The notes: a model not told the origin generated them from the letters alone. Numbered from the stretch's first letter, positions 38,394 to 54,413 are shown. The stretch: 64,000 bases of DNA from Acidimicrobiales bacterium (GCA_038206295.1 JBBRAZ010000005.1:50447-114446), one strand, 5' to 3'. Numbers and translations: made by a program.

Positions 38394-40097
<1,704 letters not shown>

Positions 40098-40143
40098 GGC
40101 GCCAGAGGGTAGCGGTCGCTGCGCGCGCCTCGGCCCGGACGCG

Positions 40144-40182
40144 CACGACCCCCCGCACCGGCATCCGGTGCGGGGGGTCGTG
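40144..40182 (-). terminator. Perfect 18-bp-stem hairpin downstream of the NYN-domain gene
   Basis: cacgaccccccgcaccgg-cat-ccggtgcggggggtcgtg lies 16 nt after the stop at 40198 and upstream of ettA. No U-tract. Confidence 0.6.
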
Positions 40183-40197
40183 TCGAAGCCAGATGGG

Positions 40198-41544
40198 TCA
40201 GCGCCGCTTGGCTGCTGCCTTCTTCTTGGCTGGTGCCTTCTTCTTGGCCGGAGCCTTCTTCTTGGCTGGGGCCTTCTTGGCAGGTGCCTTCTTCTTGGCT
40301 GGTGCCTTCTTCTTCGCGGGCGCCTTCTTCGCAGGTGCCTTCTTCTTGGCCGGAGCCTTCTTCTTCGCGGGCGCCTTCTTCGCAGGTGCCTTCTTCTTGG
40401 CCGGAGCCTTCTTCTTCGCTGCCTTCTTCTTCGCTGGTGTCACCGGCGCCTCCTCGGCGTTGAGTGGATCCGCAGATTTTCTACCATCCTCATCGCCATC
40501 GGTGCGGGAACGAACATCGGTTGTGGCCGGTTCGAGCTCTTCGATGACGCCGAGAGCGGGTGCGACATCGATGCCGTGACGGTCGCCGTCGACCGATGTG
40601 ATCGTGAACCGGTACCTCCCACCGAGTCGCAGCACCGACCGCGCGCTCGGCGGCGCAGGGTCGCCGAGCGCGACGACGGGCACGTAGCAGCTGATGCCAT
40701 CGACATCGATGTAGGCACCGTGCGAGGAGAACCGGTCGACCGTTCCGACGACGTCGGCCCCCGGGGGGTTGGCGCCGATGAACTCGAGGAACGGGAGGAG
40801 GTCGTTGATCGCCTCCAGCGGGCGCTGCGTGCCACGGGACCGGTTGCGCCCGCTGCCGCGCTGGCCATCCTTCGACGTCGCAGCGTCCTTGGGTGTGCTG
40901 GCGGCAGCGGCGCGCCCGCCGCCGCGGCCACGTCCGCCGGCGGGCGCCTTGGCCGCTTTCTTCGCCACCTTGCCGGTGTCGCCGACCTTCGGGGGGGCGC
41001 CGCTGGCGCTGACGATGACCTCATCGGGCTTCAGCCCCGTGACCTCGCTGGCCTTGCCGCGTCCGCCGCGTCCGCGTCCGCGGCCACCACCGCCACCACC
41101 TCGGGTGGCCTGGCGGCTGACGGCGCCGCGCACCGGCCTGCGGTACTCGAACACCCAGCCGATGCCGGTGATGGGCACGCCGCCCACGAGGCGACCGTCG
41201 TCGAACAGCCAGGTGTACTCGCCGTGGAACTCCTGGAAGGAGTCGTTGGAGAGGACCGTGGCGCCGACCTTGTCGGCGATCTTCAGGATGAAGGCGTCGC
41301 CGCGGCCGATGACGCCGGCTGGGGGGCGCACGAGCTCGCCGGCGAGCAGCGCCTCCTCGTAGAGGTCGCGCTCGGACGGATCGATGCGGTTCGGGAAGGT
41401 GGCGTCGACGACGACGGTCACCTGATCGAAGCTGTGGTCCTTCAGGAATGAGCGGACGGCCTCGTCGAGCTGCGCCAAGCTGGGCTTGGTGCGCCCCTCG
41501 GTCGCCAGGTTCGATCCATCGACGACCAGCTGGGTCTGTTTCAT
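40198..41544 (-). CDS. Zc3h12a/Regnase-like NYN ribonuclease domain - RGG-rich linker - S1-like domain - Lys/Ala/Pro-rich histone-H1-like tail
   Basis: The N-terminus QLVVDGSNLATEG...GDAFILKIADKVGATVLSNDSFQEFH...GRLVGG parallels the Regnase-1 NYN motifs ([26 protein letters not shown]). RGGGGGGRGRGRGGRG box. VGTVDRFSSHGAYIDVDGISCYVPV is S1-like. The tail is (APAKKK)n. AGGAG lies 12 nt before the ATG at 41544. Confidence 0.82.
   Translation of the reverse strand: MKQTQLVVDGSNLATEGRTKPSLAQLDEAVRSFLKDHSFDQVTVVVDATFPNRIDPSERDLYEEALLAGELVRPPAGVIGRGDAFILKIADKVGATVLSNDSFQEFHGEYTWLFDDGRLVGGVPITGIGWVFEYRRPVRGAVSRQATRGGGGGGRGRGRGGRGKASEVTGLKPDEVIVSASGAPPKVGDTGKVAKKAAKAPAGGRGRGGGRAAAASTPKDAATSKDGQRGSGRNRSRGTQRPLEAINDLLPFLEFIGANPPGADVVGTVDRFSSHGAYIDVDGISCYVPVVALGDPAPPSARSVLRLGGRYRFTITSVDGDRHGIDVAPALGVIEELEPATTDVRSRTDGDEDGRKSADPLNAEEAPVTPAKKKAAKKKAPAKKKAPAKKAPAKKKAPAKKKAPAKKAPAKKKAPAKKKAPAKKAPAKKKAPAKKKAPAKKKAAAKRR
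40201..40436 (-). repeat. In-frame tandem DNA repeat (51-nt period) encoding the PAKKKAPAKKKAPAKKA tail
   Basis: caggtgccttcttcttggc... recurs at 40281, 40332 and 40383 with near-identical units. More diverged copies flank them. Confidence 0.85.
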
Positions 41545-43861: not shown

Positions 43862-43970
43862 CTTCTCGGCGCGCTGCGTGGACTCCCAGTCTCACCACGC
43901 CGCCGAGAATGTCCACGTGGGAATCTCGGCGCGCTGCGTGGACTCCCAGTCTCACCGCGCCGCGGAGAAG
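43862..43970 (-). repeat. Tandem pair (60-bp period) of REP-like hairpin elements, upstream flank of the DUF559 gene
   Basis: (c/a)(t/a)tctcggcg-cgctgcGTGGACTCCCAGTCTCACC(a/g)cg-ccgc(c/g)gagaa occurs twice, with terminal inverted arms ttctcggcg / cgccgagaa. The core is the reverse complement of the core at 45021-45129 and 11248-11296. Confidence 0.9.
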
Positions 43971-44005
43971 CGGGAGTGTCATACCCCCGGTCTTGAATCT
44001 CGTGC

Positions 44006-44995
44006 ATGACCACCTCACCTGCCCCACCCGCCACAGATCGAGCCGACAGGTGGCCGAGCCCGTTCCCTGGGGTCGATGCCCACCCGGTCGAGCGGCTCAT
44101 GCACCTCGCGGCGATGCAGCACGGCCTCGTCTCGACCTACCAGGCAGAGGTGATCGGTGTCGGGCGGTCGCGCCTCCAATCGATGCAGCGGCGCGGCGTG
44201 CTCATCCACGCGGGGCGAGGGGTCTGGGCCCTACCGGGATCGCCGGAGACCGAGCGCCAGGTGCTGCTGCGACCGTGCCTCTCCTACGGCGGCGTCGCCT
44301 CTCATCGAGCTGCGGGCTCGCTGCACCGCATCGAGGCGTGGACGGAGCGTCCCATCGAGCTGACTGTCGAGCGCTCGCGCTCGGTGGACGTCCCCGGTGG
44401 GATCGTGCATCGGACGCAGGACCTCATCGCCGACGACATCGTGATCATCGACTCGATCCCGGTGACGTCGCCAGCGCGAACGCTCGTCGATCTCGGCTCG
44501 GTCGTCCCGGCGGTCCTGGTGAGCAGGTCCGTCAACCACGCGCTCCGCCTCATGCTCACCACGATCGTCGAGCTGCAGCTGGTCGCGGACCGCGTTGGGC
44601 GGCACGGCCGGTCGGGAGCCGGCGTGCTGCGCCGCGTCCTCGATGGGAAGGTGGCTGAGCACCAGCTCATGGAGAGCCCGCTGGAGTCGGATTTCCTCGA
44701 CCTGTGCATCGTGCACGGCCTCCCGGCACCGTCGGTGCAGCACCCTGTGCGGGTGAACGGCAGGGATCGCAGGCTGGACGTCGCGTGGCCGAGCGTGAAG
44801 CTCTGCGTCGAGCTCCTCGGGTACGAGCATCACGGCCAGCGCGAGCGCTTCGAGGAGGACAGGAGGCGGACGAACGACCTGCAGCTCGCTGGGTGGACCG
44901 TGCTCGAGTTCACCGCCGATGACGTGCGCCGGCGTGGGTCCAGGACGATCTCCCTTGTGCTGCGGATGCTCGACCGACTGGGCTACCCGGGTTGA
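44006..44995 (+). CDS. AbiEi-like N-terminal (wHTH) domain plus C-terminal DUF559 (Vsr-like endonuclease fold) protein
   Basis: QHGLVSTYQAEVIGVGRSRLQSMQRRGVLIHAGRGVW...VTSPARTLVDL at the N-terminus. ESPLESDFLDLC...RLDVAWPSVKLCVELLGYEHHG...DRRRTNDLQLAGWTVLEF is the DUF559 pattern. Confidence 0.82.
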   Translation: MTTSPAPPATDRADRWPSPFPGVDAHPVERLMHLAAMQHGLVSTYQAEVIGVGRSRLQSMQRRGVLIHAGRGVWALPGSPETERQVLLRPCLSYGGVASHRAAGSLHRIEAWTERPIELTVERSRSVDVPGGIVHRTQDLIADDIVIIDSIPVTSPARTLVDLGSVVPAVLVSRSVNHALRLMLTTIVELQLVADRVGRHGRSGAGVLRRVLDGKVAEHQLMESPLESDFLDLCIVHGLPAPSVQHPVRVNGRDRRLDVAWPSVKLCVELLGYEHHGQRERFEEDRRRTNDLQLAGWTVLEFTADDVRRRGSRTISLVLRMLDRLGYPG

Positions 44996-45020
44996 GCGTT
45001 CACGTCAGCGCCACGCCGAT

Positions 45021-45129
45021 CATCTCGGCGTGCTGGTGAGCCTGGGAGTCCACGTACGCCGCCGAGAAGGTGCTGGTGGGCTTCTCGGCGTGCTGGTGAG
45101 ACTTGGAGTCCACGTACGCCGCCGAGAAG
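45021..45129 (+). repeat. Tandem pair (60-bp period) of the same REP-like hairpin elements, opposite orientation, downstream flank of the DUF559 gene
   Basis: c(a/t)tctcggcg-tgctGGTGAG(c/a)C(t)TGGGAGTCCACgta-cgccgccgagaag occurs twice, with perfect 10-bp arms cttctcggcg / cgccgagaag in copy 2. The second copy ends 2 nt before the kgd stop codon. Confidence 0.9.
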
Positions 45130-49586: not shown

Positions 49587-50264
49587 TCAGGCGTCGTCCC
49601 CGCGGCTGCCGGTGTAGGCGACGATCATCGTCGTGGCCAGCGCGATCGCCAGCAGGGCGACGATGCCGCGCACCAGCACGACCTGATCCTCGAGGTCGTC
49701 GAGCTCCCGGTCGTCGTGCGAGGAGGCGACGACCGGTCCGCCGCCGTCATCTGCGCCGACCACGACCGTGGGACCTTCGGGCACCCCTGACGGCTCGTGC
49801 GACACGATGCCGAGCTCGGCCGCTGCGGCGCGCAGCGCCGCACCATCGCTGGTCGAGCACGAGATCGCGGCGAGGTAGCCCTCCTCCGGGTCGCGGTTCG
49901 CGACGATGCCGACTGGTTCCCCGATCGCCTCGAAGGTTCGCCCGCATTCGTCCGGGCCGCCACGTCCTGTCCGGATCTCGGTGATGATCTCGACGTCGCC
50001 GACGAGCACCTCGCGCACCGCCATGGTCCACTCGATCGGCGCCGTGGTGGCGTCGTCGAGCGAGCGCGACGAGACGGGTTCAGCGATGAAGACCGCATCC
50101 GCCGACTGCATCTGGCGCAGGGGGTCGGGCTGCACGCAGGAGCAGGCAGATGCCGCAGGTGCGAGCAGCAGCCCGGCGCCGAGCGAGAGCACGACCGCGG
50201 CGAGTCCGGCGGGGAGGGCGGCGCGGCGACGGGGACGACGGGTCGACGGCGTGGTCTCGGGCAT
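49587..50264 (-). CDS. Exported, C-terminally membrane-anchored protein consisting essentially of one TIMP/NTR-like CxC module (short paralogue)
   Basis: Signal peptide RRPRRRAALPAGLAAVVLSLGAGLLLAPAASA|CSCVQPDPLRQMQSADAVFIAEPV. Cys only at mature positions 1, 3, 67 and 96. Acidic linker. C-terminal TM helix IVALLAIALATTMIVAY. ATG at 50264. Confidence 0.75.
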   Translation of the reverse strand: MPETTPSTRRPRRRAALPAGLAAVVLSLGAGLLLAPAASACSCVQPDPLRQMQSADAVFIAEPVSSRSLDDATTAPIEWTMAVREVLVGDVEIITEIRTGRGGPDECGRTFEAIGEPVGIVANRDPEEGYLAAISCSTSDGAALRAAAAELGIVSHEPSGVPEGPTVVVGADDGGGPVVASSHDDRELDDLEDQVVLVRGIVALLAIALATTMIVAYTGSRGDDA

Positions 50265-50400
50265 GGCGCACAGTCTGGCATCGGCACCGGAGGTGCGCGG
50301 GACGCCGCCGGTGGGCAACGATGCGTGCGTGGGGGACGAGCCGGAGGCGACGATCGGTGACGAGTGGGGGCTCGACGTCGAGCCCGAGCTGCGCGCTCGC

Positions 50401-51087
50401 ATGATGCAGCGGTTCCTCGCCCCGCCCGACGAGGGGCTGACCGATCACCGCCGCGAGCTCCGCCGCCTCGCGGACGCGGTGCGACGCACCATCGCCAGCA
50501 TGGTGCGCACCACCGCCCCGGTCGACGAGCTCGCCGCGCTGGCCGACGAGGCGACGCTGGTGGCCGAGCACATCGAGCGCTACCCCCACGGCACGATGTA
50601 CGAGGGCATCGCCGAGGCGGCCAACGCGGGCCCGGACCCGCACGCCGGGTTCGACCACAGCCCGTTCATTGGGCGGTCCAACCCGCTGGCGCCGCCGATG
50701 CAGCTGCGCGTCGACGACGACGGCACCGTCCGCGGCACCGTGCGGTTCGACGGTCCGTACGAGGGGCCGCCCGGCTGCGTGCACGGCGGGTTCGTCGCCG
50801 CGGTCTTCGATGAGCTGCTGGGCGCGGCCCAGTCCTCCAGCGGTCCGCCGGGGATGACGGGCACGTTGACGATCGTCTACCGGTCGCCGACGCCGCTGCA
50901 CACCGACCTGACGCTCGAGGGCGTGACGATTCGGCGCGACGGCCGCAAGATCTTCACCCGCGGCACGCTGCACGCTGGCGAGGTGCTGTGCGCGGAGGCC
51001 GAGGGCATCTTCATCTCGATCGACCTCTCGCGCTGGAAGGAGCTCAAGGAGGCCCGAGAGGCCGACCAGCGCGGCGACGCCGGCTGA
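50401..51087 (+). CDS. PaaI-family hotdog thioesterase
   Basis: PGCVHGGFVAAVFDELLGAA...GTLTIVYRSP...EAEGIFI is the typical PaaI pattern. The start is uncertain; in-frame candidates extend up to 50263. Confidence 0.78.
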   Translation: MMQRFLAPPDEGLTDHRRELRRLADAVRRTIASMVRTTAPVDELAALADEATLVAEHIERYPHGTMYEGIAEAANAGPDPHAGFDHSPFIGRSNPLAPPMQLRVDDDGTVRGTVRFDGPYEGPPGCVHGGFVAAVFDELLGAAQSSSGPPGMTGTLTIVYRSPTPLHTDLTLEGVTIRRDGRKIFTRGTLHAGEVLCAEAEGIFISIDLSRWKELKEAREADQRGDAG

Positions 51088-51099
51088 CCAAGGCCCTGC

Positions 51100-52773
51100 T
51101 CAGCGCCTGCGGCCGGTGCGGAGGACGACCACGACGGCAATGAGCGAGGTCGCGACGGCAGACGCGAGCGCGACCGCCGGCCAGCGACTTCCGGATCCAT
51201 CCGCGGGGGCGCTGGCACCGATGGCCTCCTCGTCGCCCAGGTCCCCATCGCCTGCGTCCACGCTGCCGTTCGAATCCGTGTCGGTCGGCGCTGGTGCATC
51301 GTCGGCGGGTGGCTGGCCGTCGGCGAGCGAGCGCAGCTCGTCTCGCTCGTGCACCGCTGCCATGGTCTCGGTCACCTCGAGCGGCGCGTCGAGGCGCGCG
51401 ACGAGCGTCGGCCGCCACGCTGGAGCGAGGAGCACCTGCTCGACGACCTCGGGGGCGTCGACGTCCCACGTCGGGGTGCCGTCGCCGGCGAGCCCGATCC
51501 ACGTCGCGCCGTAGGACGACGATCGCTCCGGGTCGGGTGCACCCGCCACGGTGCGGGTGTGCACGCCTGATGGGTCGTGCACGCGACGCGCGCCCTCGCG
51601 CATCTCCAGCACCCGGGTGCCGTCGGCGGCGATGGCGACGCGAGTCACCTCGCCCGCGGGCTCGACCGGCCACGAGGCGGTCGAGGACAGGTCCGCGTCG
51701 ATCGTCAGCAGCTCGCGCACCGGGGAGAGCTGGTTGTCGCCGCTCACAAGCGCCGAGAGGCCGCCGTCGGGGTGGGGTACGAGGGCGCGCACCATCGTTC
51801 CAGTCTCGAGCGTCGCCACGGGCTCGAGCGCACCGGTGTCGAGATCCAGTCGGGAGAGGGCACCGCCTGAGGCCACGACTACCTGGCCGCCCGCCGTGAC
51901 TGCGACCTCGGCTGGCCCGCCGACGTCGACGCGGTGCACCTCGTCGCCGGTGTCGGTTCGCAGCACGGCGATGCTCCAGCCGTCAGCCTCGACCGACTGG
52001 TACGTCCCGACGGCGAGGCTCCCGTCGGGTGTGGCGCAGAGCAGTTCCGCCGGGCGAGCCTCACCGAGGCGAGCGAGCTCGGTGGAGGTGGAGGTGGCGG
52101 TGTCGCTCACCACGAGCGGCAAGGTGCGGTCGCCGTTGGGCTCCCATCGGTGGGCGAGCACCGTGCGACCGCCGGGGCAGATGGTCGCCTCCTCCGATTC
52201 GCTGGGCAGGGCGCGCCACGCGACGACGTCACCCCGTGCGTCGCGCAGCTGCACGCTGCTCGGCCCCACCTGCCACAGCGAGACCGACGTGGCGGGCCCA
52301 CGTGCCGTAGGCGCCGGCAGGTCGATCGCGATGCCGCGCAAGCCTTCGGGGGTGATGCTGCCGACGCAGGCACCGATCATCAGCAACCCGTCGCGGCTGC
52401 GAGTGGTCACGACCGCGGCCACGCCACCTGGTTGCGCCACGCTGCCGCACGAGGTCGAGTCGGTGAACACGGAGAGGTGCTCGACGGCGGCGCCGGTCGG
52501 GGTGGTCTCGTCGCCTGCCACCACCTCGTCCACCGCGAGGACCATCTCGATGAGCCTCGGGCGCATCGCGCTGTCGAGGTCGTCTCGCTCGTGCACCGCC
52601 TCGACCGTGCCGATCACCGCGACGTCACTCCTTCCGACGACCTCGGTGAGCGGCGGGGGCGGCGAGCAGCTGCATGCCTGCGCCCGCGGCGCGTGCACCA
52701 GCAGGGTTGTCACCGCGAGCACGGTGAGCACCGCGATGCCGGCAACTCGGCTGGTGCCGGTAGACGACGTCAC
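51100..52773 (-). CDS. Exported surface-anchored protein: N-terminal TIMP/NTR-like CxC module, ~350-aa repeat-rich (beta-propeller-like?) region, acidic linker, C-terminal TM anchor
   Basis: GTG start overlaps the upstream stop (GTGA). Signal peptide ...TLLVHAPRAQA|CSCSPPPPLTEVVGRSDVAVIGTVEAV. Module Cys at positions 1, 3, 76 and 103. C-terminus WPAVALASAVATSLIAVVVVLRTGRRR. Full-length paralogue of 52770..54413. Confidence 0.8.
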   Translation of the reverse strand: MTSSTGTSRVAGIAVLTVLAVTTLLVHAPRAQACSCSPPPPLTEVVGRSDVAVIGTVEAVHERDDLDSAMRPRLIEMVLAVDEVVAGDETTPTGAAVEHLSVFTDSTSCGSVAQPGGVAAVVTTRSRDGLLMIGACVGSITPEGLRGIAIDLPAPTARGPATSVSLWQVGPSSVQLRDARGDVVAWRALPSESEEATICPGGRTVLAHRWEPNGDRTLPLVVSDTATSTSTELARLGEARPAELLCATPDGSLAVGTYQSVEADGWSIAVLRTDTGDEVHRVDVGGPAEVAVTAGGQVVVASGGALSRLDLDTGALEPVATLETGTMVRALVPHPDGGLSALVSGDNQLSPVRELLTIDADLSSTASWPVEPAGEVTRVAIAADGTRVLEMREGARRVHDPSGVHTRTVAGAPDPERSSSYGATWIGLAGDGTPTWDVDAPEVVEQVLLAPAWRPTLVARLDAPLEVTETMAAVHERDELRSLADGQPPADDAPAPTDTDSNGSVDAGDGDLGDEEAIGASAPADGSGSRWPAVALASAVATSLIAVVVVLRTGRRR

Positions 52774-54413
52774 CGCTCACCCCTTCGGTCGAGCTCCATC
52801 GCTCCGGCACGGCGCCGCACCCCGAGCGCGATGCCGAGGCCGCCCATCGCCGCGGCGATCGCCGCCAGTGCGGCGAGCCCGTCGGCGGCTGCGACGCTCG
52901 CTGCAGGAGCCGTCGTCGCCTGCGCCGCGGGCCAGCCGTCGGGCAGCACGCGGGCGCGGAGCGCGTCGCGGGTGCGCACGCCTTGCAGCGCTGGGTCCAC
53001 CGGACGTTCGGGCACGAACCGGGCTGCGGTGCCCACCGGCACCACCAGATCCACCGACGTGTCGCCGGGCTCGGACCACGTGATCTCGCCGCCCGAGAGG
53101 CCGAGCCACACGGGCTGGTTCGCAGCCCTCGCCGACGAGGCTGCAGAGCGCTGCTGGTCGTCGGGCACGAAGCGACCGCGCACGGTGCCGTCGGGTGCGA
53201 GCAGCGTGGCGTGCAGATCGTGGTCGACGACGAGCAGCGAGCCGTCGGGAAGCGCCGTCACGTCGCCGTGCAGGTTGGGCTCGACGATGTCGATGGCGCT
53301 CGCTGTCGTCAGGCCGGGGTCGGTGCGAAGCATGGCGGCGTACGGCGGCGCGCCGGCAGTGACCGCCTCGGGGCTGGCGAGGAGCACCGCGACACCGCCG
53401 TCGACCAGGGCGACCGTCTCGATCGGGACCGCGTCTTCGGGGACCACCGCGATGGGTGACAGCCGGCCGGTCTTCGCGTCGAGCAGCTCGAGCGCCGCAT
53501 CGGAGGTGACCACGAGTTCGCCGTCCGCGGTGACGGAGACACCGCCTCCGTTCGGCGACGTGGTCTCGGAGATCGTGGCTCCCGTCGCGGCGTCGATGAC
53601 CGCGAAGCGCCGCGGCTCGTCGTCGGTGGCGTGGTGCGTCCGCACAAGGCGGCTGGCATCGCTCGCCGCGCACACGACGTCGCCCCCGCCTTCAGGAAGC
53701 GCGCCCGTGCGCAGCGTGCGGCGCTCCATCGTGGTGACATCGACGGTGACGAGCTGGTCTGGCTCGCCCGCACCCCACAGGTCGGCGATCACGACCTCGC
53801 CGCCGGGGCAGATCGACGCCTCGTGCGCGCCGCGCGGCAGCGCGCCCCAGGCGACGACCGCCCCGTGGATGTCTCGCAGCTGGAGGTCGCTCGGGCCCTC
53901 GCTCGATCCAGCGGTGACGAGCGCGACCGGACCCGCGCTGGGTGGTGGGGGCAGATCGAGCGCGATCCCATCCACGTCGTCGACGGCGATGGCTGGGACG
54001 CACCCCTCGACGAAGAGGCGTCCCCCGTCGCGGCTGAGGAGCACCACCTGCGGCCCCCCTCCCAGCTCGAGCTGCCCCTCGCTGCACCCCATGAGGGGGT
54101 CCTGGACGGTGATGACCGTGCCGGGGGCGATGCTCGAGCCCGGGTCATCCACCACGACGGCGTCGACGCGGAGCCGGCCCTGCCTGCGCATCCCCGAGCC
54201 CGGGAAGTCGTCGTCGACGCCGTGGTAGGGCGTGACGCTCTGTAGCTCGGCGACCAGGACCACGTCCGCGCTGCCCACGGCCTCGAGCGGCTCCTCGACG
54301 TAGCCGCACGAGCAGGCACCGGCGCGGTCGGGCAGCAGCACCACGACGATGGCGACGAGCACCGCGACGAGCACCGCGGCCTGGGCTCGCCGCGCCAGCG
54401 CACCCAGCGACAT
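52770..54413 (-). CDS. Exported surface-anchored protein, paralogue of 51100..52773 (TIMP/NTR-like CxC module, repeat-rich region, C-terminal TM anchor)
   Basis: The ATG shares one nucleotide with the upstream stop (TGATG). Signal peptide AAVLVAVLVAIVVVLLPDRAGA|CSCGYVEEPLEAVGSADVVLVAELQSV. Module Cys at positions 1, 3, 77 and 105. It shares LQLRDxxGxVVAWxALP......A.ICPGG with the paralogue. C-terminal TM LAALAAIAAAMGGLGIALGVRRR. Confidence 0.8.
   Translation of the reverse strand: MSLGALARRAQAAVLVAVLVAIVVVLLPDRAGACSCGYVEEPLEAVGSADVVLVAELQSVTPYHGVDDDFPGSGMRRQGRLRVDAVVVDDPGSSIAPGTVITVQDPLMGCSEGQLELGGGPQVVLLSRDGGRLFVEGCVPAIAVDDVDGIALDLPPPPSAGPVALVTAGSSEGPSDLQLRDIHGAVVAWGALPRGAHEASICPGGEVVIADLWGAGEPDQLVTVDVTTMERRTLRTGALPEGGGDVVCAASDASRLVRTHHATDDEPRRFAVIDAATGATISETTSPNGGGVSVTADGELVVTSDAALELLDAKTGRLSPIAVVPEDAVPIETVALVDGGVAVLLASPEAVTAGAPPYAAMLRTDPGLTTASAIDIVEPNLHGDVTALPDGSLLVVDHDLHATLLAPDGTVRGRFVPDDQQRSAASSARAANQPVWLGLSGGEITWSEPGDTSVDLVVPVGTAARFVPERPVDPALQGVRTRDALRARVLPDGWPAAQATTAPAASVAAADGLAALAAIAAAMGGLGIALGVRRRAGAMELDRRGER

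Follow-up and report, generated by a model that had tools for sequence, protein, structure and literature searches.

We analyzed a stretch of 64,000 nucleotides (nt) from an Acidimicrobiales bacterium (GCA_038206295.1, JBBRAZ010000005.1:50447-114446), referred to below as the window, and focused on a gene of its minus strand, gene C (49587..50264), which encodes a short-form protein of 225 amino acids (aa) related to TIMPs (tissue inhibitors of metalloproteinases). Taken together, our results are best explained, with a probability of about 0.6, by gene C encoding a type-I surface protein that is anchored at its C-terminus and whose single folded domain represents a prokaryotic homologue of the N-domain (N-terminal domain) of TIMPs; to this domain we ascribe a putative inhibitory role.

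The open reading frame (ORF) and its translation define gene C as a TIMP-like membrane protein. Its coordinates are exact, with the stop codon (49587-49589) counted in, and the GC-content of its three codon positions (respectively, 0.75, 0.55 and 0.87) is coding-like relative to the GC-content of the window (70-74%). The same 225-aa sequence is also present as a called protein in NCBI, where its contig measures 123.6 kb. The sequence reads MPETTPSTRRPRRRAALPAGLAAVVLSLGAGLLLAPAASA before the cleavage site, then CSCVQPDPLRQMQSADAVFIAEP at the start of the module, followed by ECGRTF, AISCSTS, the acidic linker and finally VVLVRGIVALLAIALATTMIVAYTGSRGDDA at the C-terminal end. The first-pass annotation of this DNA had described a signal peptide, a Cys-x-Cys module, an acidic linker and a C-terminal transmembrane (TM) anchor, and we found all of these elements. 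The signal peptide (residues 1-40; 50145..50264, minus strand) comprises an n-region that is Arg-rich, as had been reported, with a net charge of +4, a hydrophobic core and the sequence APAASA, which places Ala at positions -3 and -1; the AlphaFold2 (AF2) model presents a helix at residues 14-33 of this segment. The TIMP/NTR-like module (residues 41-152; 49809..50144, minus strand) was delimited with the family profile searched against the PDB, with hhalign, and with AF2 and Foldseek. It opens with Cys1-Ser2-Cys3, contains the partner Cys 107 (ECG) and 136 (SCS), and presents a net charge of -11 over 112 aa. Gene C contains Cys only at residues 41, 43, 107 and 136, and these correspond to the mature positions 1, 3, 67 and 96 that had been listed previously if the protein is cut after ASA. 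The acidic, Gly/Pro-rich linker (residues 153-194; 49683..49808, minus strand; net charge -10) is predicted to be disordered, and the predicted local distance difference test score (pLDDT) of its residues 163-186 is below 50 in the AF2 model. The C-terminal TM helix (residues 195-217; 49614..49682, minus strand) was identified from Kyte-Doolittle hydrophobicity (peak of 2.32 for the 19-mer at residues 196-214), from AF2 (a helix at residues 185-223 spans the segment) and from the alignment of 19 short forms of the family, which have in common a C-terminal hydrophobic segment followed by Arg. The same alignment defines the short cytoplasmic tail TGSRGDDA (49590..49613, minus strand), which contains the near-invariant Arg221.

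The relationship of the module to TIMPs is visible in sequence profiles. An exhaustive phmmer search with residues 38-160 of gene C against 1.84 billion representative proteins identified 22 proteins at E <= 1e-3, most of them 163-233 aa long, and 19 short forms were used for the family alignment and profile. When this profile was searched against 177,635 PDB sequences, all 15 matches were TIMPs (E from 2.6e-7 to 3e-3), the top matches being the N-domain of TIMP-3 (2.6e-7), TIMP-2 (2e-6) and TIMP-1 (3e-4). The profile-TIMP alignments begin at residue 1 of the TIMP chain and pair the four Cys of the family with TIMP C1, C3, C68-72 and C95-101; the alignments obtained with the profile and with Pfam end at about TIMP residue 100-108. 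Using hhalign, the family aligned to TIMP-2(1-102) with a probability of 94.9% (E = 4.4e-8), and the paired Cys were C41/C1, C43/C3, C107/C72 and C136/C101. The Pfam TIMP model (PF00965) matched 5 of the 19 members (best E = 8.4e-7). The family member P0020 scored 27 bits with this model, above the gathering threshold of 23.1 bits; gene C is under this threshold, with no match at E <= 1. Pfam NTR was not matched by the family. Several local motifs are common to the family and to TIMPs, namely C-S/T-C, a Pro near position 8, AD-x-V-(F/I), (K/R)-G and x-C-G. At mature position 2, gene C possesses a Ser (Ser42), as do 27 of the 31 family modules that we compared for export features, and TIMPs have Ser or Thr at this position. 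The last pair of Cys is separated by 29 residues, the spacing that had been given for C72/C101 of TIMP-2 and that we counted on the PDB sequence of TIMP-2. This match is incidental, because the spacing is 28 and 27 in A and B, two longer paralogues of gene C in the window, and 27 in TIMP-3. We infer from these comparisons that the module of gene C is related, distantly but with solid statistics, to the domain by which animal TIMPs inhibit metalloproteases.

The predicted structure of gene C was obtained with AF2 without templates and from an alignment of 10 sequences. Over the module, the mean pLDDT of 10-residue blocks was 78-94, except for residues 41-50 (72) and 101-110 (55). The model presents five strands (residues 57-68, 77-88, 94-99, 118-124 and 131-133) and helices at residues 48-54 and 141-150. 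The best Foldseek matches of this model were TIMP-1, agrin NtA, TIMP-2, TIMP-3 and the NTR modules of meteorin and PCOLCE, with E-values from 1.4e-4. The top 20 matches were all TIMP or agrin NtA. The template-modelling scores (TM-scores) reached 0.6-0.67 when normalised to the N-TIMP chains. The module is therefore modelled as a five-stranded oligonucleotide/oligosaccharide-binding (OB) barrel with flanking helices, of the TIMP/NTR type. The profile search, the hhalign comparison and the Foldseek ranking all bear out the first-pass description of the module as TIMP-like.

We further analyzed the family to which gene C belongs. Its members commonly present a signal peptide, the sequence A-x-A↓C-S-C (the arrow marks the cleavage site) and a module of ~110 aa, which a linker of low complexity connects to a hydrophobic helix near the C-terminus, with a basic tail after it. 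Across the 19 short forms, C41, C43, G89, C107 and C136 are invariant and A40, S42, F59, V83, G108 and R221 are nearly so. The module was always found directly after the signal peptide and never in an internal position. Most members are short forms, and the module is otherwise fused to varied partners: beta-propeller-like regions, RCC1-like repeats (P0029) and a CarboxypepD_reg domain (P0030). These architectures agree with the earlier suggestion that the module is an autonomous unit. Long forms were identified elsewhere in P0007 (582 aa), P0018 (530 aa), P0012 (partial) and L007 (532 aa), and they match paralogue B just past the module, including its CPG motif. Two members present unusual modules. 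P0020 (301 aa) contains, in a single ORF, two tandem units each composed of a signal-like segment and an AWA↓C-x-C module, which matched the family hidden Markov model (HMM) with E-values of 1.5e-23 and 7.3e-29; either the gene call is a fusion or the protein genuinely has two heads. In P0028 (212 aa), C-S-C is replaced by C-S-Y, such that position 3 no longer provides its Cys for the presumed second disulfide, and both downstream Cys are kept.

The family is small and fast-evolving. Word-indexed protein searches performed poorly, with two matches for gene C, two for the member P0002 and ten for the profile. An alignment of gene C and P0005 searched against GTDB genomes detected two loci only, one in an uncultured Acidimicrobiales metagenome-assembled genome (MAG) and one in an Actinomycetota MAG, and the same alignment found no match in metagenomes. 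An alignment of gene C, P0006 and P0011 detected five short metagenome contigs and no match among viral contigs. No match to the module was found in plasmids using tblastn, and none of the NCBIfam models covers the family.

The export signals were compared across the 31 modules. Ala was found at position -1 in 30 of them and at position -3 in 28 (29 with the register of P0015 corrected), and Pro at position -4 in 16, and position -2 is variable, the residues W, R, H, Q, E and N included. The strict lipobox [LVI][ASTVI][GAS]C was found in none of the 31 modules (gene C has A-S-A-C), a permissive PROSITE-like lipobox in four, gene C among them, and a match to RR-x-hydrophobic-hydrophobic in three, one of which is RRRAAL in gene C. 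A lipobox call at ASAC had been set beforehand as a point to be checked; across the family, AxA↓C is near-invariant, being counted in 30-31 of the 31 modules, and no lipobox is conserved. Because AxA is near-invariant and neither lipobox nor twin-arginine (Tat) motifs are conserved, our results favor Sec export and cleavage by a type-I signal peptidase immediately ahead of Cys1 as the likely property of the family. We rejected a Tat substrate as the primary reading of gene C, its motif not being a feature of the family (3/31). A sortase substrate was likewise rejected, as no LPXTG/LAXTG-type motif precedes the C-terminal hydrophobic segment in C, A or B. In addition, no motif preceding the TM segment is conserved in the short-form alignment, and the NCBIfam sorting-domain models returned just two isolated matches, both below threshold, across the 19 family members.

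What could such a protein do? TIMPs insert a ridge formed by residues 1-4 and by the disulfide-linked 66-70 loop into the active-site cleft of the protease, with the amine and carbonyl of Cys1 binding the zinc (PMC9890683). We propose that the product of gene C would leave the cytoplasm via Sec, with signal peptidase I cleaving just ahead of Cys41, after which two disulfides, Cys41-Cys107 and Cys43-Cys136, would form outside the cell. An acidic linker of roughly 45 residues would then tether the module to the membrane and leave its N-terminus free. In the manner of TIMPs, Cys1 would use its free alpha-amino group and its carbonyl to chelate the catalytic zinc of a metalloprotease, Ser2 would enter the S1' pocket and the disulfide-linked xCG loop would complete the inhibitory ridge. 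Lipidation would block the alpha-amine of Cys1, and anchoring at the C-terminus therefore fits a TIMP-type mechanism, since it would keep Cys1 unblocked. Such a protein would probably protect the cell envelope against a metalloprotease secreted by the cell itself or by a competitor. A surface-tethered metalloprotease inhibitor is the function that we consider most likely, because the family conserves the elements of the TIMP ridge and because the module is always located at the mature N-terminus; the mechanism itself, as read from these sequence features, is possible at somewhat less than even odds. A broader proposal is slightly more tentative. It holds that these proteins might be the first prokaryotic inhibitors to use the TIMP mechanism (i.e., zinc chelation by the N-terminal Cys) and to be displayed from a C-terminal anchor, that the TIMP/NTR fold of metazoans might have its root in this bacterial family or, alternatively, the family might stem from an ancient transfer out of animals, and that the beta-propeller of the long forms might select the target.

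Several observations weigh against this interpretation. Gene C alone found no match in Pfam, NCBIfam or the PDB, such that its link to TIMPs exists only at the level of the profile and the fold, and the AF2 alignment contained just 10 sequences. The third disulfide of the TIMP N-domain (C13-C124/126) is lacking: the module has four Cys and none at the aligned positions. The C-terminal domain of TIMPs, with its three disulfides, is also absent from gene C, which presents a linker and a TM segment instead. The signals at both ends of the protein are not clear-cut, as ASA↓C fits the permissive lipobox, RRRAAL within STRRPRRRAAL loosely fits the Tat motif and the cytoplasmic tail has a net charge of -1, whereas most relatives have a basic tail of the RRR type. 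More generally, many domains with the NTR fold are not protease inhibitors. In the genomic context, no peptidase is conserved beside the gene in the window or in the related loci L001-L003 and L005-L009, and the neighbors in the loci examined are housekeeping or metabolic genes. The sole ORF with an HExxH motif in the 64-kb window encodes a small Zincin_1 protein that lacks a signal peptide and looks cytoplasmic. Because no peptidase is a conserved neighbor, inhibition is a function that we infer.

The main rival explanation accepts the same TIMP/NTR fold and ancestry and the same tethering at the surface, but considers the module a non-inhibitory binding domain that, like agrin NtA, complement C345C and the NTR module of PCOLCE, would recognise a ligand, a protein partner or a polymer of the cell wall; the conserved N-terminal CSC would then be only a structural disulfide staple. 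The Foldseek scores are compatible with this view, as agrin NtA, meteorin and the NTR module of PCOLCE score about as high as TIMPs; the sequence profile, however, retrieved no NTR protein apart from TIMPs, nor was Pfam NTR matched. The same view would account for the lack of a genomically linked peptidase in every locus examined, for the attachment of a beta-propeller-like region, typical of binding scaffolds, in the long forms, and for the loss of the xCG motif in the module of paralogue A. Non-inhibitory NTR modules are nevertheless mostly internal or C-terminal. In this family, by contrast, the module always lies at the mature N-terminus behind the AxA site, Ser2 is conserved in 27 of 31 members and the C-terminal anchor leaves Cys1 free. 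Overall, we consider a non-inhibitory binding domain unlikely, although it is the most serious competitor of the inhibitor.

Two other explanations would each rule out a TIMP-type use of the module, and we consider both much less probable than a binding domain. The four Cys could bind Cu or Zn as reduced thiols in an extracytoplasmic metal chaperone or sensor, in which case the resemblance to TIMPs would be irrelevant to function. CxC motifs are common metal ligands and the module is strongly acidic (net charge as given above), but its four Cys align one-to-one with the disulfide partners of TIMPs, Cys pairs at such positions of an extracytoplasmic OB-fold are expected to be oxidised, and no metal-chaperone family was matched in Pfam or NCBIfam; this is the least probable of the explanations that we weighed. 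It is slightly less improbable, and still very unlikely, that the product of gene C is a lipoprotein, with ASA↓C acting as a lipobox and Cys41 lipidated via Lgt, LspA and Lnt, which would hold the protein at both ends and block its N-terminus. LAPAASA-C does fit the permissive PROSITE-style pattern, and Tim of Listeria, a protein with a TIMP-like predicted structure, is a lipoprotein (PMC8235301). Against this, position -3 is occupied by Ala and not by Leu, Val or Ile, the strict pattern is absent from the family and the permissive one rare (0/31 and 4/31), and neither paralogue B (AQA↓C) nor paralogue A (AGA↓C after an Arg) fits even the permissive pattern. A position -2 that accepts W, R, H, Q, E and N is compatible with signal peptidase I but not with LspA, and a protein held by its C-terminal TM segment would have no need of a lipid anchor. 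We therefore retain a C-terminally anchored TIMP N-domain homologue as the preferred reading of gene C.

The two paralogues of gene C in the window are long forms encoded on the same strand. Paralogue B (51100..52773, minus strand; 557 aa) comprises a signal peptide, a CSC module, a beta-propeller-like region, a linker and a TM segment. Paralogue A (52770..54413, minus strand; 547 aa) possesses a divergent module and was delimited from its MSLGAL start, as the GC signal of third codon positions (GC3) that marks coding sequence is lost in the frame upstream. Each of them presents CSC at residues 34-36, two more Cys in the module and an extra region of ~300 aa; gene C is devoid of this large repeat region, as had been noted. 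The stop codon of A and the GTG start of B overlap by 4 nt (52770-52773). This overlap suggests that A and B form an operon and that their translation is coupled. Using BLASTP, A matched B with an E-value of 3e-32 (31% identity over 436 residues), and gene C matched B with 2e-6 over 78 residues and A with 0.003 over 26 residues. Both modules are divergent relative to the family, and that of A contains GCSEG where the family has xCG. B reached an E-value of 0.025 against Pfam TIMP (14.8 bits, under the gathering threshold of 23.1 bits), and A was not matched. An HMM built from gene C and the short forms of other organisms, without A or B, nonetheless detected B (E from 1e-9 to 2e-8) and A (4e-5 to 1e-3), so that the homology of the three modules extends past the CSC motif; a failure to align outside this motif, which the first-pass annotation had put forward as a reason for doubt, was not observed. 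A local HMM search of the window found no fourth copy of the module.

Gene C had been described as a third copy lying 0.8 kb away. The distance and orientation hold, since 836 nt separate the stop codon of B (51100) from the start of gene C and both are on the minus strand, but the gap is filled by a 4HBT thioesterase gene on the plus strand (about 50377-51087). Gene C is therefore outside the A-B operon and transcribed separately. The modules were also compared in a neighbor-joining tree, in which A pairs with B and gene C pairs with P0005, a protein from another source that is its nearest relative (57% identity; distance of 0.47). The distances from C to B (0.80) and to A (0.81) are no smaller than those from C to other family members. 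This tree is poorly resolved, and long and short forms are interspersed in it. The earlier statement that the module was duplicated and shuffled locally, when understood as a recent event, is not supported by these results: the nearest relative of gene C is P0005 rather than A or B, and long forms exist in other genomes. Of the three copies, A and B alone have the look of a tandem duplication, which would be old given their identity of 31%. A, B and C may still lie together as the outcome of a local duplication in the very distant past.

The large repeat region of the long forms was also modelled. In B (residues about 245-410) and in A, this region is predicted as repeated four-stranded beta blades. 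The AF2 model of B was computed from an alignment of two sequences and is poor, such that it supports only a generic beta-propeller at residues about 245-410: the mean pLDDT is 46 for the whole model and 54-88 for the 10-residue blocks of the blade stretch (60-88 from residue 251). Foldseek matches of the propeller region of B were generic beta-propellers (WD40, BamB and designed propellers), and the repeat region of the long forms yielded weak matches to PQQ_2, SGL and NHL in Pfam.

The genes around gene C are xthA, the thioesterase gene, kgd, a DUF2505 gene and a UvrD-type helicase gene. In the related loci (L001-L003 and L005-L009), neighbors include proline racemase, a GT4 glycosyltransferase, DnaE, PurM, PFK, CoA-transferases and a GerE regulator. 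The only recurrent synteny was observed in the metagenome loci L005 and L006, where the short form is located between an upstream GT4 glycosyltransferase and a downstream DnaE, and it contains no peptidase. The HExxH-containing Zincin_1 ORF of the window (PF06262; 56975-57331, plus strand) lies 2.6 kb from paralogue A and is probably unrelated to the TIMP-like genes, as we saw no equivalent in the other loci.

Two other features of the window were noted. A GC-rich, internally palindromic repeat of 47-59 nt is present in two tandem copies (60-nt spacing) at both 43862-43971 and 45011-45129. These repeats flank an AbiEi_4/DUF559 gene (43997-44995, plus strand), with the two sides inverted and 78-83% complementary, and look like flanks of a possibly mobile gene that resemble repetitive extragenic palindromes (REP) or miniature inverted-repeat transposable elements (MITE). 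Finally, the open frame of an ABC-F (EttA-like) ATPase gene (38394-40439, minus strand) extends past the likely start (MAAQYIF) by about 114 upstream codons. The translation of this upstream stretch is extremely rich in Arg and Pro and repetitive (RRRRLRPRRRH...), and the stretch is probably non-coding GC-rich repeat DNA.

All the N-terminal hallmarks of the TIMP mechanism are retained by the family within a domain of 110 residues with two predicted disulfides. The origin of the TIMP fold and the control of metalloproteases at the bacterial surface would therefore become directly testable questions, and the module might be used as a minimal scaffold for the engineering of metalloprotease inhibitors. 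If the module is not inhibitory, gene C would simply be one more uncharacterised surface protein.

These features can be compared to those of known systems. Like the module of gene C, the N-domain of vertebrate TIMPs (TIMP-2 and TIMP-3; PF00965, MEROPS I35) has Cys-Ser/Thr-Cys at its mature N-terminus, four aligned Cys (C1, C3, C70/72 and C99/101) and an OB-fold, and it shares the motifs AD-x-V, (K/R)G and xCG with the family. Gene C differs from vertebrate TIMPs in being bacterial, in lacking the third N-domain disulfide and the C-domain, and in possessing an acidic linker and a TM anchor, whereas TIMPs are secreted. The NTR modules of agrin (NtA), PCOLCE, meteorin and complement (C345C) belong to the same fold class (Foldseek E from 2.6e-4 to 8e-3), but none of them was matched by the family sequence profile. 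These NTR modules are not known to make use of a free N-terminal Cys. The single-domain TIMPs of nematodes and Hydra resemble gene C in having one inhibitory-type domain without a C-domain (PMC9409782), but they are metazoan, secreted and have six Cys in this domain, whereas gene C is prokaryotic, membrane-anchored and has four.

Among bacteria, Tim of Listeria monocytogenes (LMRG_00714) is membrane-associated and has a TIMP-like predicted structure (PMC8235301). Tim, however, is a lipoprotein with an LTAC lipobox, and its similarity to TIMPs is structural only, whereas the family of gene C is similar at the sequence level and presents AxA↓C and a C-terminal TM segment. The gene encoding Tim also directly adjoins that of the metzincin Mtz, which cleaves Tim, whereas the genes of our family have no adjacent protease in the loci examined. 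The potempins of Tannerella forsythia resemble the role proposed here, being surface-anchored inhibitors that neutralise secreted peptidases, and PotA forms an OB-fold barrel (PMC9890683). Unlike the product of gene C, they are outer-membrane lipoproteins co-transcribed with their target peptidases, and they were described as structurally unrelated to TIMPs and as using other mechanisms (PMC9890683). A review of 2022 presented TIMPs as an innovation of metazoans linked to the extracellular matrix (PMC9409782), and the 2021 study of Mtz and Tim found no record of bacterial TIMP-like proteins (PMC8235301). A TIMP-type netrin domain had nevertheless been mentioned in 2012 as the sole domain of a protein in "various Eubacteria" (PMC3516229, which cites Brew and Nagase 2010). 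Our family is in line with these bacterial proteins composed of the TIMP/netrin domain only, and its member P0020 passes the Pfam TIMP threshold. We found no functional, structural or experimental work on the family of gene C in the literature. Bacterial TIMP-type domains have thus already been noted, and the family of gene C represents a real and well-defined homologue of the TIMP N-domain with a new anchoring architecture.

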